IMG/VR virus record: IMGVR_UViG_2778261256_000006
Span: 1 to 55,611 of that record
Source: a virus
Lineage: Duplodnaviria > Heunggongvirae > Uroviricota > Caudoviricetes
DNA: 55,611 nt
Reading direction: 5' to 3' (one strand)
Part shown: positions 2,098 through 11,548 of the stretch, in pieces
How positions within the stretch are numbered: position 1 is the first letter of the stretch
Layout: each line of letters begins with the position of its first letter
Notes under the pieces: model-generated
The model's database searches: none
Told to the model about the DNA's origin: nothing
Seen by the model: the letters and a program-made list of their open reading frames with translations, nothing else
Made by a program: the position numbers and the translations under genes

Positions 2098-5816
<3,719 letters not shown>

Positions 5817-6491: not shown

Positions 6492-6823
6492 AGAAAACAG
6501 CCCTGGTACTGGCGCTGCTCACTCTCCCCGTCTTTGCGGACACACATGTCTATGAGTGCGAAATGTTTGTGGTCGAAGCGAAAAACGGCCTGATCCGCAA
6601 CGTCGTTAAAGCTAATTACGGCGCGATGGTTGTGGACCGTGGCGAACAGTTTTATGTGGTACGCGATGATCGCGTCCTGTCTTCCCCGTTTCTCACTAAA
6701 CGTAACGGCGAACTATCTGGCGTAGGTAAAGATAGGTTCGTTTACAACAAATCGGGTGATGTATACGGCGTTCACGCGAAGAACGACAGCTACCTTTTCG
6801 ATGACTGCAAGGAGATTAGTTGA
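6488..6823 (+). CDS. secreted hypothetical protein (N-terminal signal peptide)
   Basis: MKKTALVLALLTLPVFA signal-peptide-like N-terminus; translationally coupled to flanking small genes. Confidence 0.5.
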   Translation: MKKTALVLALLTLPVFADTHVYECEMFVVEAKNGLIRNVVKANYGAMVVDRGEQFYVVRDDRVLSSPFLTKRNGELSGVGKDRFVYNKSGDVYGVHAKNDSYLFDDCKEIS

Positions 6824-7035
6824 TGGCGGTTACACTGACAGGTCTGGAAATCGAAAAAACAAGCGGCTACTGGCGTGCCAAAGGGTTCAAGCAGTCCGGC
6901 GTACTGGAACGACTGGAACGTGAAGATGGGTATATTGTCCACCAGCGACGTGAATGGCACATGTACGATCCGGAAACAGGTAAGCTCGCAACGAAGGCCG
7001 GGACACTCTGGGGTCTGCTGAAGAAAATCCACTGA
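6820..7035 (+). CDS. hypothetical protein
   Basis: 71-aa ORF with start overlapping the upstream stop (ATGA); ends just before the iteron array. Confidence 0.4.
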   Translation: MMAVTLTGLEIEKTSGYWRAKGFKQSGVLERLEREDGYIVHQRREWHMYDPETGKLATKAGTLWGLLKKIH

Positions 7036-7042
7036 TAACACT

Positions 7043-7643
7043 ATCCACTGCGGTGAGTAGCCAGTTCACCGCGTGTGAATCCGGCTCATAACCACTGTAG
7101 CGAGTAGAACACCCTTCAGGTATGCCCCCCAACCACTGTAGTGAGCAAACCCTCTGCCACGATATCAACTATCCACTGTAGTGAGTAAATTGGTGATTAT
7201 CGGGGTCGCTATACACTGTAGTGAGTAAACAGGCGTTCACTGACTACAAACAACCACTATAGAGAGTGATGGAATGCCCCCTCCAGCGGATATCCACTAT
7301 GGAGAGTAAATCTTCGCTGTTTTAAACGGATATCCACTCACTACAGTGGATAGAGGTCAAGTCAGCCAATTCTGCTCTTCACAGTGGATAGTCAACAATG
7401 AGGAGAGCGACGATAACCGCTGTAGAGAGTAGACTTAACAGAGATACCCAGTGACCGCTAACCTCTCAGCCCTTGTTTTATCTATGTTTGCAACCACTAA
7501 CATTTACTTCGCGATTTGTGCGCACTGCCTACAGTGGTTATTCTTCGGTTTCTTTTACTCACTACAGTGGATATTGCATTTCCGATAAACAAAAAGGCTC
7601 ACTACAGTGGATAGTGAGCCTTTTTACTCTCTACAGTGGTTGG
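7043..7643. repeat. iteron array downstream of repA (about 14 copies of CCACTGTAGTGAGTA-like repeats, both orientations)
   Basis: Repeated TATCCACTGTAGTGAGTAA-like units at irregular 30-45 bp spacing, some as inverted pairs (e.g. 7330-7352). Confidence 0.85.
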
Positions 7644-7644
7644 G

Positions 7645-8700
7645 CTATTTGCGAGCCTTTGCCTTGCGCAGCTCTTCGAGAATCGCCAGTTCTTCCTTGC
7701 TCAACATGACCATTTCCCCGTCTTTTTCTTCAGGGGCAACATCGATAATGTCCTCCGGATCATCACCTGGCAAGATATCTTCTGGCTCTTCAGGCGTGGC
7801 CATAGATGGCGGCAGTGCCGAACGTAACTTCGGCCGTCTATAGTGGATGACGAAGTAGACCGAGCTGCCGCGTTTCACTTCAGTGTAATCGAGATAGCCG
7901 ATCTCTCGCAGCTGCTCCATCGCCTTCCTGACTGTCGCATTCTGGGTAATGGTGCGGCTGGTTAAGTTAAGTCTGGCGCGTAAGCGAGCCAATGAGATTG
8001 GCGCCGGGTCTGGTGGCAAACTTTCAATGAAGGTGTAGAGCGCCTGCGCGGATTCTTTTCTGGAGAGTTCGTTGATGGCCCGAAGTTGCAAAAGCACCTT
8101 TTTGTCGAACTGGTAAAGTTCGAAAATCTTAGGATCGGCCTTCAGTTCGACCGTGTCATTCTTGGTACTGTACTTTGCCGTCTGCACAAGGTGCGTAACG
8201 TAATACTCTTCAGAGCCTTTGCTGCGGAATGAGATGGTGTTTGTGGCGATACGACTTAGAGAGCTGTCCAGGCGCTTACGTAACTTCGCGGACGATCTGG
8301 CTGTTGGTATGCCACAAAGTCTGACGAACTCGACGAACGGCAACGTGACGGTGTCACCAACAACCTTGTGCTTGGCGAACGCGTGGATGATGCCCACCCA
8401 TGTTTTGAAATCGTTATCCATATCAAGACGAAGACCAGCAATCCTTATATCCTCGTACCCTTCGGCTTTGGCCAGAGACAGCTGTTTGAGTTCAGCGGAG
8501 GCGTCCATAGAGACCATTTGCCCCTTTCTACCCCTGGATGTCGATTTCAGCGTCGGAACGAAGAGACCAAGACGCATCAGAGCAACAGGCTGAACTGTGT
8601 TGTTGGTGTTAGGAACTAACGTAACAACTTCGCCGGTCTTTTTGTCTGTTTCGGAAAATGCTTCGCTTATCGCAATGTTTTTATTGTCGTTTACGCTCAT
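7645..8700 (-). CDS. repA: Replication initiator RepA (RepFIB / P1 RepA family, iteron-binding)
   Basis: 351 aa; motifs I recall from RepFIB RepA ([61 protein letters not shown]); flanked by iterons. Confidence 0.88.
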
Positions 8701-8738
8701 TCCAAATGTCTCTTTTTATTCGACGGCTTGGGTGCCTT

Positions 8739-8844
8739 TACTGATTACAGTGGATAGTAGCACCCATCACAGTGGTTATCCTACCGCCTACAGCGGTTTT
8801 TCTACTCTCTATAGTGGTTGTTCTTCTCACTATAGTGGATATCG
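8739..8844. repeat. iteron block upstream of repA (about 5 copies)
   Basis: ACAGTGGATAG / ACAGTGGTTAT-like repeats in the orientation opposite to the downstream array. Confidence 0.8.
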
Positions 8845-8883
8845 ATAACCTCTAAAGCCATGTGGCACAACGGTTTGCAGGGG

Positions 8884-8965
8884 CCGGGGATCTCTTTGGG
8901 TCTTTGTGGTTCTCTTTGGTTCTAACAGGGATCTGAATTACTGGATCGGGCCTGTGTATAAAAAT
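8884..8965. promoter_or_regulatory. GATC-rich module with DnaA-box-like site (origin element), copy 1
   Basis: Several GATC within about 80 bp, plus TGTGTATAA (reverse complement of TTATACACA, matching the DnaA-box consensus TTATNCACA). Confidence 0.6.
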
Positions 8966-9120
8966 CAGATAATTACAAAATCAGGCATCACTCCCCTTCT
9001 GGGGATAATGTGTGATCGAAATAAACACGCCGCAACGCAAAATTTACAATATTTCCAAGAATATCAGCCATCTGCCGCAGAAAAACAGGCTCGGAGTTAT
9101 CCAGTTAAAACATTGTCTCC

Positions 9121-9230
9121 TACTCACTACAGTGGATACCGACTACTCTCCAGAGAGGTTGTTTTGCTCTTCATAGCGGTTATTATGCTCTCTACAGTGG
9201 TTATTTTGCTCCCTATAGTGGATAGTAACC
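9121..9230. repeat. second iteron block upstream of repA (about 4 copies)
   Basis: CACTACAGTGGATAC, CTACAGTGGTTAT and TATAGTGGATAG repeats. Confidence 0.8.
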
Positions 9231-9261
9231 CCTTCTCAAGCCAGTAACCGCAAGCGCTGGA

Positions 9262-9340
9262 GACGATCGGGGATCTCTTTTGATCTTCTGTAGGATCTCT
9301 CTGGGGATCTAAATATTGGATCGGGCCTGTGAATAAAGTG
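9262..9340. promoter_or_regulatory. GATC-rich module with DnaA-box-like site, copy 2
   Basis: About 7 GATC sites in 60 bp followed by TGTGAATAA (reverse complement of TTATTCACA); near-duplicate of the 8884-8965 module. Confidence 0.6.
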
Positions 9341-9421
9341 AATAAGTAAACAGGCATTTGCAAACTCCGGTGCGCCTTATCCGTTATCGTTGCCCCGGAC
9401 AAAATTATTTGAACAAGAATT

Positions 9422-10066
9422 ATGGATCTTAAACGCACGCGCTGGGTTCGCCGTCTTGAAGATGGCTCCTACACCATTGAATCAAACACTAGTCTGAACA
9501 AACAGAAGTTGCTCTGCGACCTTTGCGGCATTGCTTCGAAATGCCCGATTAACGAAACCCGGCTTAAACTCCACGACGCCGGTGCGCATTTCCACCTAAA
9601 CAGCTGCATACGTTACGTGCCACTACTAGCATTTCGTAAACCGATCATCGGATTGGATGCTCCCTACTTCAACACACTGCGCTCTGGTGTCACTTGGCGA
9701 GATCGTGTCGAACCTGGCAAACTCGTTTGTCTGGTTGAAGCTGATACCGGAAATGTCATCCGGTTCGGGAGAGTTGATAAGGTCTACTCAGGCCCAGTGG
9801 ATGAAATGCTGCGGAAACACAGCCGATTTAACCATCTCTGCATGGGCGGAGAGAAGATTGAGAAGGTTGGCGAAGTAATTCGCAAATCTTACGGACACTT
9901 TCTGAATGATAACAGCCTTCTGACAGCCATTTACATTCGCCATGTCGATCGGGAGTTCGACACGGAGTATCACAGTGCTGAAGAGTTGAATCTTGTAGAC
10001 CCTCGTCCAAAAGCTGGGGTAATAGACATCAGCAGAGCGCGTCAGAAGCCCTCAGAGACGTTTTAA
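9422..10066 (+). CDS. hypothetical protein (possible ASCH/PUA-like beta-barrel; weak)
   Basis: 214-aa ORF adjacent to the origin region; no strong motif. Confidence 0.45.
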   Translation: MDLKRTRWVRRLEDGSYTIESNTSLNKQKLLCDLCGIASKCPINETRLKLHDAGAHFHLNSCIRYVPLLAFRKPIIGLDAPYFNTLRSGVTWRDRVEPGKLVCLVEADTGNVIRFGRVDKVYSGPVDEMLRKHSRFNHLCMGGEKIEKVGEVIRKSYGHFLNDNSLLTAIYIRHVDREFDTEYHSAEELNLVDPRPKAGVIDISRARQKPSETF

Positions 10067-10462
10067 AGGCAAACTCATGCTTTTTACCGGGCATAAAATA
10101 TGGTGTCTTAGAAAGACACTGAGAGCTTTAGGGATTAATGCATGAGTGAATTTTATTCAAGAGCAGAAACTGTGGCCGACGGATGCGTTTGAAGACGACG
10201 CACGCAAACGCCGTAGATGTCATCTCACAACTTCACCGTCCGTTCTCCTTTTTCATTTCTTGTCATCAGTAAATGACTGCTCTCATAAAATTGCTTGTGA
10301 CGTTTAGAAATCGTTGCTGCCCTATCTGATAGGTATTTACTTACTTATTTTTTTGTCATTATCATGTGCCTTTATATTCTTTTGTGTGCCGTGTTGTCTG
10401 GGTTGTACGCCTCTTATGCACGCTTAGAATTTGTATCAAAATAACCACAAAGGAAAAGACAC

Positions 10463-11548
10463 ATGACATTGCCATACGGGGTAATATCAGATCCCCATTA
10501 TCATCGTTGGGATGCTTTTGCGACAACAAACGCTGACGGGCTTAACTCTCGGCTGGAGATCCAACTGGACGCTACGAAGGAGGCGGCCAAAGCGATGAAA
10601 GCTGCTGGCTGTAAGCACATGCTGGTAGCTGGTGATACCTTCCATGTTCGCGGTGCTATATCACCTTCCGTTCTGCATTTCGTGACCGAAACTTACGAGT
10701 GGATCATCAAAGAGTTGGGTCTCAAGGTGGTAATGCTGGCTGGCAACCACGACCTCGAAACCAACGATTCCGTATACAGCGCCAATGCAGCAGCCTCTCT
10801 GCGCTCAATCGGTGTGGAAATCGTCTGCGGCAAACGTCCTCATTCCATCAAAATGGGCGACGTAACCGTCCATCTGATTAGCTGGCGTAATAACCACGCA
10901 GAACTTATCAGCGATCTCAAAACGCTGCGTTCCGGGCTGGATGGTGACAACCATGATGTTGTTGTACATACCTCAATCAACAAAGCGATCCCCACCATGC
11001 CCGATGTCGGCATCGACGCACAGGAACTGAAAGATATCGGCTTCCGTTTATTGTTGTCCGGGCACTACCACAACCACAAAGAAGTGCTGCCTGGAGTGGT
11101 AAGTATCGGGGCGCTGACACACCAGAATTGGGGGGATGTTGGTTCACTGGCCGGCTTCATGATCGTCAAACCGGACGGCTCATTCACTCACCACGAAACC
11201 TCGGCACCTAAATTCGTGAACCTTGAGGACGATGTAGATGACGATCAGATTCGCGGCAACTACGTGCGCTTCCGTGCCGTTGTTGAGAGCGATGAAGAAG
11301 GCATCAAACTTCAGAACGTCCTGAAAACAATGGGCGCGAAGGGTGTCGTCTGCAACTTCATTCGCAAGGCATCGATGATGGAAGGCGCTGCCAGTACTGC
11401 GGAAACCAGCAAAATTGACAGCCTGGGAGAGTCCGTTGCGGCGTACTGCAAGATCGTTCACGACACTGACGGTGGCTTCGACCTGAGCAAACTGGACATA
11501 CTGTGTCAGGAGATCTTGACCGAAGCAGAGAGTGCGGAGGCTGTGTGA
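10463..11548 (+). CDS. SbcD/Mre11-family metallophosphoesterase nuclease (phage recombination nuclease)
   Basis: Calcineurin-like phosphoesterase motifs (DPHY, GDTFH, GNHD, GHYH); upstream of an SbcC/Rad50-like ATPase. Confidence 0.85.
   Translation: MTLPYGVISDPHYHRWDAFATTNADGLNSRLEIQLDATKEAAKAMKAAGCKHMLVAGDTFHVRGAISPSVLHFVTETYEWIIKELGLKVVMLAGNHDLETNDSVYSANAAASLRSIGVEIVCGKRPHSIKMGDVTVHLISWRNNHAELISDLKTLRSGLDGDNHDVVVHTSINKAIPTMPDVGIDAQELKDIGFRLLLSGHYHNHKEVLPGVVSIGALTHQNWGDVGSLAGFMIVKPDGSFTHHETSAPKFVNLEDDVDDDQIRGNYVRFRAVVESDEEGIKLQNVLKTMGAKGVVCNFIRKASMMEGAASTAETSKIDSLGESVAAYCKIVHDTDGGFDLSKLDILCQEILTEAESAEAV

Follow-up and report, generated by a model that had tools for sequence, protein, structure and literature searches.

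Two tandem oriR-like modules upstream of repA in the replicon of an SSU5-family phage-plasmid

Comparison with P1, RepFIB and R6K

The annotated oriR of P1 (IncY), which is experimentally defined, combines a tandem pair of DnaA boxes with five Dam sites and with five incC iterons spaced at 21 bp, with the promoter PrepA inside the last iterons; it is followed by repA and then by nine incA iterons. Here we describe a replicon of this type that surrounds the initiator gene repA in a virus-derived DNA stretch of 55,611 nucleotides (IMG/VR record IMGVR_UViG_2778261256_000006; in the following the window, i.e., this stretch at its full length), in which the origin-like part upstream of repA is present twice in tandem. 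We term the copy next to repA module P (proximal) and the copy beyond it module D (distal). The parts of the replicon are as follows:

7042-7642, both orientations: downstream array of 14 iterons, the counterpart of P1 incA and RepFIB E to K
7645-8700, minus strand: repA, 351 amino acids (aa), ATG start, Rep3-family (WH1-WH2) replication initiator
8741-8961, upstream of repA: module P, made up of an iteron block, phased repeats and a DnaA-box-like 9-mer (modules about 225 bp each)
8741-8841, plus strand: P iteron block, five iterons at 8741, 8763, 8784, 8805 and 8826, spacing 21-22 bp
8885-8948, plus strand: GGATCT-type, helically phased repeats of P, spacing 10-14 bp, GATC at 8889, 8930 and 8944
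8953-8961, minus strand: DnaA-box-like 9-mer of P, TGTGTATAA, reading TTATACACA on the repA strand, one mismatch
8962-9117, no strand: inter-module spacer, near-neutral evolution, 60-64% identity between clades
9123-9345, upstream of repA and beyond P: module D, made up of an iteron block, a Dam-site cluster and tandem DnaA-like boxes
9123-9224, plus strand, oriented as block P: D iteron block, five iterons at 9123, 9146, 9167, 9188 and 9209, spacing 21-23 bp
9262-9323, plus strand: D Dam-site cluster, helically phased GGATCT-type repeats, GATC at 9265, 9272, 9282, 9294, 9306 and 9319, spacing 7/10/12/12/13
9328-9345, minus strand: DnaA-box-like pair of D, TGTGAATAA at 9328-9336 (one mismatch), directly adjacent to AGTGAATAA at 9337-9345 (two mismatches)

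Each module repeats the order, spacing and sequence of P1 oriR, and both can be aligned with the annotated origin. The last Dam site and the first iteron lie 40 nt apart in both P1 and D, and 47 nt apart in P. Dam sites that are spaced 7/10/12/12/13 in D follow each other at 7/10/11/23 in P1 oriR, and the two adjoining boxes of D lie where P1 has its tandem DnaA boxes. Furthermore, both systems have a downstream iteron array in mixed orientation after repA. P1, however, has one origin module where the window has two in tandem, its iterons are of the 19-bp GATGTGTGCTGGAGGGAAA type rather than the CTCACTACAGTGGATA type of the window, and its downstream array counts nine iterons instead of 14. 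The original prediction, made from the DNA sequence, had likened the arrangement to oriR/incC, repA and incA of P1. This layout is indeed found, and the sequence homology reaches into the DnaA-box/Dam-site segment, which is alignable among P1, classical FIB, FIB(K), the Klebsiella phage-plasmid replicon and both window modules. Judged from these alignments, each window module is a full-length homologue of P1 oriR.

The classical RepFIB replicons (P307, F and pO157; repeats BCDD'D''-repA-E to K) share with the window a RepA of about 60% identity, the IncFIB type, and a DnaA box with five GATC (approximately 11-bp spacing) upstream of the origin iterons. As in the window, there are iterons upstream, which are associated with the origin, and iterons downstream, which were shown experimentally to be the inhibitory set (PMC11983097). 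Their rep gene starts with a CTG codon (PMC11983097), whereas the open reading frame (ORF) in the window starts with ATG. Classical RepFIB differs also in having a single DnaA/Dam segment, a single upstream iteron group and a different iteron sequence. Several origins in cis that depend on one iteron-binding initiator are a feature of R6K, where the Rep3-family protein pi serves the origins alpha, gamma and beta; only gamma has full iterons, and alpha and beta loop to gamma. The window may resemble R6K in this respect, judged from the sequence signatures of two origins, and differs from it in that its modules are complete, near-equal tandem copies.

RepA of the window matches Rep3_N (E 2.4e-11) and Rep3_C in Pfam and is 46% identical to RepA of P1 and P7 (tblastn, E 2e-71); this clear homology ruled out that P1 RepA belongs to another Pfam family. 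The protein has a 100% identical counterpart in an E. coli phage-plasmid and is 93% identical in SSU5 and pMT. At the nucleotide level, the 2.4-kb rep region shares 98-99% identity with many E. coli plasmids of roughly 95-190 kb, 88.8% with the Salmonella phage SSU5 (100% of 2421 bp covered), 88-89% over 2.4 kb with Y. pestis pMT and many Enterobacter, Salmonella and Citrobacter plasmids, and 81% with phage Cyrano. pMT1/pFra, SSU5 and Cyrano thus have the same replicon with both modules and the same flanking genes; the order Cra-like gene, repA, 214-aa gene and SbcD-like phosphoesterase, i.e., an SSU5/pMT1-type neighbourhood, is conserved among relatives, and the product of 10463-11548 contains a Metallophos domain. 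The pHCM2 plasmid of S. Typhi is usually grouped with the SSU5-family replicon. Plasmids with 99%, 89% (pMT) or about 76% identical copies of the replicon are all typed IncFIB (MOB-suite/PLSDB). Both the RepFIB/P1-type classification and the attribution to the SSU5 family, as originally predicted, are borne out by these identities and the shared flanking genes. By homology, this is an IncFIB-typed replicon of the P1/RepFIB iteron type, by which an SSU5-family phage-plasmid is maintained as a plasmid.

Age and conservation of the module duplication

The window iteron, a motif of 14-16 nt, is concentrated around repA. Its core CTCTACAGTGGWTA, at up to three mismatches, has 28 matches in the 55.6-kb window (shuffled sequence, 5.2 ± 2.2; maximum 11), and 23 of these lie within 7042-9224. 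The six GATC of the D cluster, packed into 58 bp (9265-9322), are the densest in the window; given 4.1 GATC per kb in the window as a whole, the Poisson P for a 62-bp stretch is about 3e-7. DnaA-box matches with at most one mismatch are found three times in the 721-bp region upstream of repA, with 0.32 expected (P ~0.004). All the predicted elements, i.e., repA, iterons, modules and DnaA-box-like 9-mers, were hence located where they had been placed and well above chance. One detail needs correction: a GATC-dense segment had been assigned to both iteron blocks, and this holds for D and not for P, where the three intact GATC are weakly dense and three further repeat units are degraded to GGTC or GTTC. 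In Cyrano and in numerous further genera, the DnaA-box-like 9-mer of P has no mismatch (TTATCCACA). As a side aspect, the iteron end (A/T)AGTGGATA(G/T/C), e.g., at 9123-9138 and 7337-7352, resembles the DnaA box TGTGGATAA with two mismatches, which makes every GGATA-type iteron a potential weak DnaA site.

The two modules are homologous, as had been proposed from their tandem appearance. Their local alignment reached a score of 107 over about 190 bp (shuffles, 17.7 ± 2.3). When the whole region upstream of repA was aligned, both modules were present in the window, SSU5, pMT, Cyrano and a divergent E. coli plasmid. Outside the iterons, these five sequences share 80-94% identity between P copies and 74-99% between D copies, whereas P and D are 58-71% identical. 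From this it follows that the modules separated before these lineages did and that they have not been homogenised by gene conversion. At least 80% of the 721-bp upstream region is covered, with both modules kept, in all 272 PLSDB records retrieved by megablast and in all 38 complete E. coli genomes, and a natural deletion of a single module was not seen among these records and genomes. The duplication had also been suspected to reflect a recent rearrangement, and one might add an assembly artefact specific to the window. Nothing but the tandem arrangement itself speaks for either, and both are refuted by the divergence of the copies, by their retention in every record and by their presence in the independently sequenced phage genomes of SSU5 and Cyrano. 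The duplication may, as originally suggested, affect copy-number control.

The duplication extends far beyond the SSU5 family. We surveyed 80 species-representative relatives with RepA identities of 61-95%, of which 78 had sufficient upstream sequence to be scored. Two upstream iteron blocks were found in 47 of these 78, in many genera; at least three GATC precede both blocks in 35 of the 47 and the distal block alone in 12. In several genera, the alignment of D with P covers the whole module. Degraded P units (AGAACC; GACCC or GAACC) are common to the window and to loci of Erwiniaceae (L018), Rahnella, Erwinia, Buttiauxella and Cedecea, and the retained P Dam sites are common to the same loci and Pantoea. 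At the base of the RepA tree are P1, FIB(K), the Klebsiella phage-plasmid Rep, classical FIB and a Pantoea group (L075-L092), which all have a single module, except for a few classical-FIB relatives with unrecognised iterons. All two-block replicons form one clade that includes Xenorhabdus, Tolumonas, Cedecea, Buttiauxella, Cronobacter, Rahnella, the SSU5 family, Pantoea and Erwinia. The original prediction was to be judged by whether the single-copy arrangement is the norm in relatives. It is not the norm in close relatives; it is found in the distant ones, i.e., in P1, classical FIB, FIB(K) and Klebsiella SSU5-like plasmids.

The RepA tree is a neighbour-joining tree and has no bootstrap support. 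Across distant genera, pairwise identity agreed with the orthology of P and D in 21 of 26 and 20 of 26 comparisons, which is moderate support. P and D are 82-87% identical in a few lineages, where occasional gene conversion between them, or re-duplication, is possible. Since the pairwise-identity signal is moderate, orthology between distant P and D copies rests more on the shared pattern of lost sites and on the tree. Taken from these comparisons, the tandem duplication is ancient, not recent, and a conserved design across many Enterobacterales genera.

The single-module replicons of Klebsiella point to a further type of rearrangement. The Dam part of window D is 79% identical over 99 bp to IncFIB(K) plasmids and 75% identical to Klebsiella SSU5-like plasmids. 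One of the latter (locus L011; K. pneumoniae NZ_CP107375.1, 1742-3160) has the same flanking genes as the window and a different, longer Rep, annotated with 405 aa. The iterons of these plasmids are unrelated (TACCGCTGACAGCATA), and their one origin, which has two DnaA boxes and six GATC, is in the same place. In L011, the Dam/DnaA segment and the stretch up to the next gene have 75% identity to window D (window 9264-9419). This pattern points to an exchange of replicons, with the breakpoint lying within the origin where the iterons give way to the Dam repeats.

Retention of both modules is also reflected in their substitution patterns. We compared the SSU5 clade with the Cyrano clade and used synonymous third positions of repA as the neutral reference. 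Identities between the two clades were:

repA synonymous third positions: 67%
inter-module spacer: 64%
D tail up to the next gene: 58%
P spacer: 67%
P repeat segment: 95%
P iterons: 90%
D iterons: 85%
D spacer: 86%
D Dam segment: 77%, every GATC kept
D DnaA tail: 82%

The inter-module spacer, the D tail and the P spacer are thus near neutral, and the P repeat segment, the iterons of both modules and the spacer, Dam segment and DnaA tail of D are well above neutral. By this measure, both modules are kept by selection. The spacer contains two conserved DnaA-box-like islands, TGGGGATAA at 9000-9008 (one mismatch) and TTATCCAGT at 9097-9105. An ORF for 113 aa at 8906-9247 (plus strand), listed as a hypothetical protein in some records, runs through the P tail, the spacer and the D iterons. 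It is probably spurious because the spacer evolves neutrally and single-base indels break the frame in Cyrano.

Within the SSU5 family, the window differs from pMT1, SSU5 and Cyrano in having five P iterons instead of six. Nearly all of the 272 related plasmids have six and an intergenic region of 742-745 bp, compared with 721 bp in the window. The window lacks exactly one unit of 21 bp, lost between two adjacent iterons within 8799-8826; in close relatives this unit is CTCTCCATAGTGGTTGATTTA. Among the records listed, E. fergusonii pRHB41-C15_2 is the only other case of the 721-bp form. The missing iteron could shift repA autoregulation or copy number.

Proposed roles of the two modules

We picture the evolution and function of this replicon as follows. 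A complete origin module with its DnaA box or boxes, phased Dam repeats and five or six iterons at 21 bp would have been duplicated in tandem long ago, giving two origins that were redundant at the outset. RepA monomers would bind the iterons of both modules, and host DnaA the flanking boxes, while the Dam-repeat segment between boxes and iterons would be the opening region, sequestered by SeqA after replication. Module D, which retains the full ancestral signature, would serve as the principal origin. Module P would carry or abut the repA promoter, such that RepA bound at P autoregulates repA, and, with one DnaA-like box and three of approximately six Dam sites left, it would still be able to act as a reduced and redundant origin. 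P presumably cannot be lost because it adjoins repA, with 40 nt between its iteron block and the start codon, and, by analogy to P1, holds the promoter-operator of repA. The 14 downstream iterons would act as an incA-like copy-number brake by handcuffing the upstream iterons. On the basis of homology with P1 oriR and RepFIB, we lean, at slightly better than even chances, towards D as the main origin and P as an operator with reduced or redundant origin function.

Several results of the survey are in agreement with this assignment. In 46 of the 47 two-block relatives detected, D has five to seven GATC, and in 45 of these it also has a DnaA box with at most one mismatch, often a perfect one; at locus L066, D has five GATC and its best DnaA-box match has two mismatches. 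Twelve two-block relatives from several separate branches of the tree have retained the P iterons and lost the P Dam cluster. Moreover, of the two copies D bears the greater resemblance to the lone origin found in FIB(K) and in the Klebsiella phage-plasmids. Capacity for origin function in P is suggested by a Buttiauxella contig from a metagenome-assembled genome (locus L058, DASXXQ010000321.1; -460 to -40 from repA). This is the only relative found with a decayed D, in which one clear iteron match, three GATC and the DnaA-like TTATCAACA are left; its P shows no such decay and has five iterons, four GATC and a DnaA box without mismatches. A second, related replicon of the same genome (L056) has both modules in full. 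Cumulative GC skew of the whole window has no switch near 7-9.4 kb; as the skew tracks gene orientation, it is uninformative on which module fires.

Some of our data do not fit easily with D as the main origin. By position, it is P, not D, that corresponds to the origin of P1 and to the one module present in the Pantoea group L075-L092, which lies at the same distance from repA. Within the SSU5 family, the host-factor segment is more conserved in P than in D (95% versus 77%), as would fit P as the working origin. The repA promoter, too, is hard to place. A promoter scan gave a single match in repA orientation, a sigma-70-like TTTAGA-16-TATAGT at 8856 to 8829 on the minus strand that overlaps the outermost P iteron; its -10 T is lost in SSU5, and this candidate was rejected. 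Promoter hexamers at iteron junctions, as in P1, were not found on inspection by eye. In addition, origins are assigned here from their sequence features.

One may thus ask whether P is the sole origin, as in P1, with D as an accessory cis element whose RepA, DnaA and SeqA sites titrate or handcuff P, or enhance its firing. The exact correspondence in position to P1 oriR and the Pantoea module, the host-factor segment of P as the most conserved non-coding stretch in the SSU5 family and the intact P of L058 all speak for this. Yet titration needs iterons only, and not phased Dam sites in P1 geometry next to tandem DnaA boxes. Together with the near-constant origin signature of D, the repeated loss of the P Dam cluster and the likeness of D to the lone origin of FIB(K) and of the Klebsiella phage-plasmids, this makes a sole origin in P rather unlikely. 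A strict division of labour would assign origin function to D only and leave P as the repA promoter-operator, its DnaA box and three Dam sites being functionless, decaying relics. The lack of three Dam sites and of one of two DnaA boxes in P fits this well, as do the 12 lineages in which the P Dam cluster is gone and the P iterons remain. Decaying relics, however, would not be expected to show 95% identity between clades in the P repeat segment where synonymous sites show 67%, nor to keep the surviving Dam sites and an often perfect DnaA box at the same positions across genera, and L058 has kept P and not D. We hence consider such a strict division unlikely.

Both modules might also be active origins under different control. 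D, with its six Dam sites and two boxes, would be strongly subject to SeqA sequestration and DnaA availability. P, with three Dam sites and one box and lying within the repA promoter, would respond to different circumstances and might fire so as to evade sequestration, at low DnaA or in other hosts. We regard this as a minor possibility. If true, a large clade of Enterobacterales plasmids and phage-plasmids would be a natural dual-origin iteron replicon, and changes in iteron number, such as the P variant with five instead of six, would tune origin balance and copy number. A separation by lifestyle, with one module for low-copy plasmid maintenance and the other for lytic amplification, is suggested by the phage-plasmid nature of the SSU5 family, and P1 indeed uses separate origins for its plasmid and lytic modes. 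This appears very improbable, given that the Klebsiella SSU5-like phage-plasmids have one module and that the twin design also occurs on contigs which, going by their size, are far larger than phage-plasmids of about 100 kb; such contigs reach 797 kb in Pantoea, and others come from Erwinia, Rahnella and Cedecea. We therefore continue to favour D as the principal origin, with P as operator and accessory origin.

Downstream array, flanking genes and significance

Read 5' to 3' on the plus strand, the downstream array starts with six inverted iterons, followed by three direct, one inverted and four direct ones. The number of downstream iterons varies among members of the SSU5-type group, and in relatives it ranges from 11 to 18, with 11 in Cyrano. 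Even among five E. coli plasmids that are 98-99% identical over the replicon, the array has 13-18 iterons (loci L093-L096, L001, L002 and L010 compared). The array grows or shrinks at its far, inverted end by whole units of about 41 bp, and both upstream modules are essentially constant. In analogy to P1 incA and the FIB downstream iterons, the array probably functions as a copy-number control element.

The array also contains a hairpin:

7590-7627, minus strand: GGCTCAC-(11-nt loop)-GTGAGCC with A5 and T5 flanks, perfect 7-bp stem, 18 nt past the repA stop

From its sequence features, this hairpin is likely a bidirectional terminator. Its loop is an iteron core (TACAGTGGATA), and because of this overlap RepA binding and terminator folding could interfere with each other. 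An Rfam scan of 6500-10100 gave one sub-threshold match only (RefA9, 28.7 bits compared with a gathering score of 49), located on the terminator-like hairpin, and thus no explanation by an RNA family.

Directly beyond module D lies the conserved gene for a 214-aa protein (9422-10066, plus strand). The Cyrano annotation names it an ASCH-domain protein, and our Pfam search gave no match at E<=0.01. Given this location, the promoter of the gene must be within or beside the DnaA-box tail of D, and RepA or DnaA bound at D might influence its expression. On the other side of the replicon, the ORF at 5130-5816 (plus strand) contains a complete rve integrase core domain (Pfam E 4e-32) and represents a transposase or a transposase fragment. 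SSU5 has other genes at this place, which indicates that an insertion sequence landed a few kb from the replicon.

The replicon as such is long known and abundantly sequenced, and its parts and likely mechanism are those of P1 and RepFIB rather than of a new kind of system; with its second origin module it is a variant within the P1/RepFIB family. In the searchable full-text literature, we found no description of the twin-origin architecture or of its wide spread in the FIB-like clade, although priority is uncertain, and full-text searches likewise gave no description of the iterons or the origin of pMT1, pHCM2 or SSU5.

This replicon maintains pMT1 of Yersinia pestis and many SSU5-type phage-plasmids of Enterobacter, Salmonella, Citrobacter and E. 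coli, and related replicons occur on large Pantoea, Erwinia, Rahnella and Cronobacter contigs. Resistance genes are often found on phage-plasmids as a class (PMC9600943). As copy number is set by the interplay of RepA with the iteron sets, a conserved second module alters how copy-number control, incompatibility, curing cassettes (for such replicons, see PMC11983097) and copy-number-driven heteroresistance are to be modelled. The module pair is also a natural case of duplicated-origin evolution, the lineages showing both copies retained, P partly decayed or, rarely, D decayed. It is hence relevant to iteron replication control, to plasmid typing and curing, and to the copy number of phage-plasmids.

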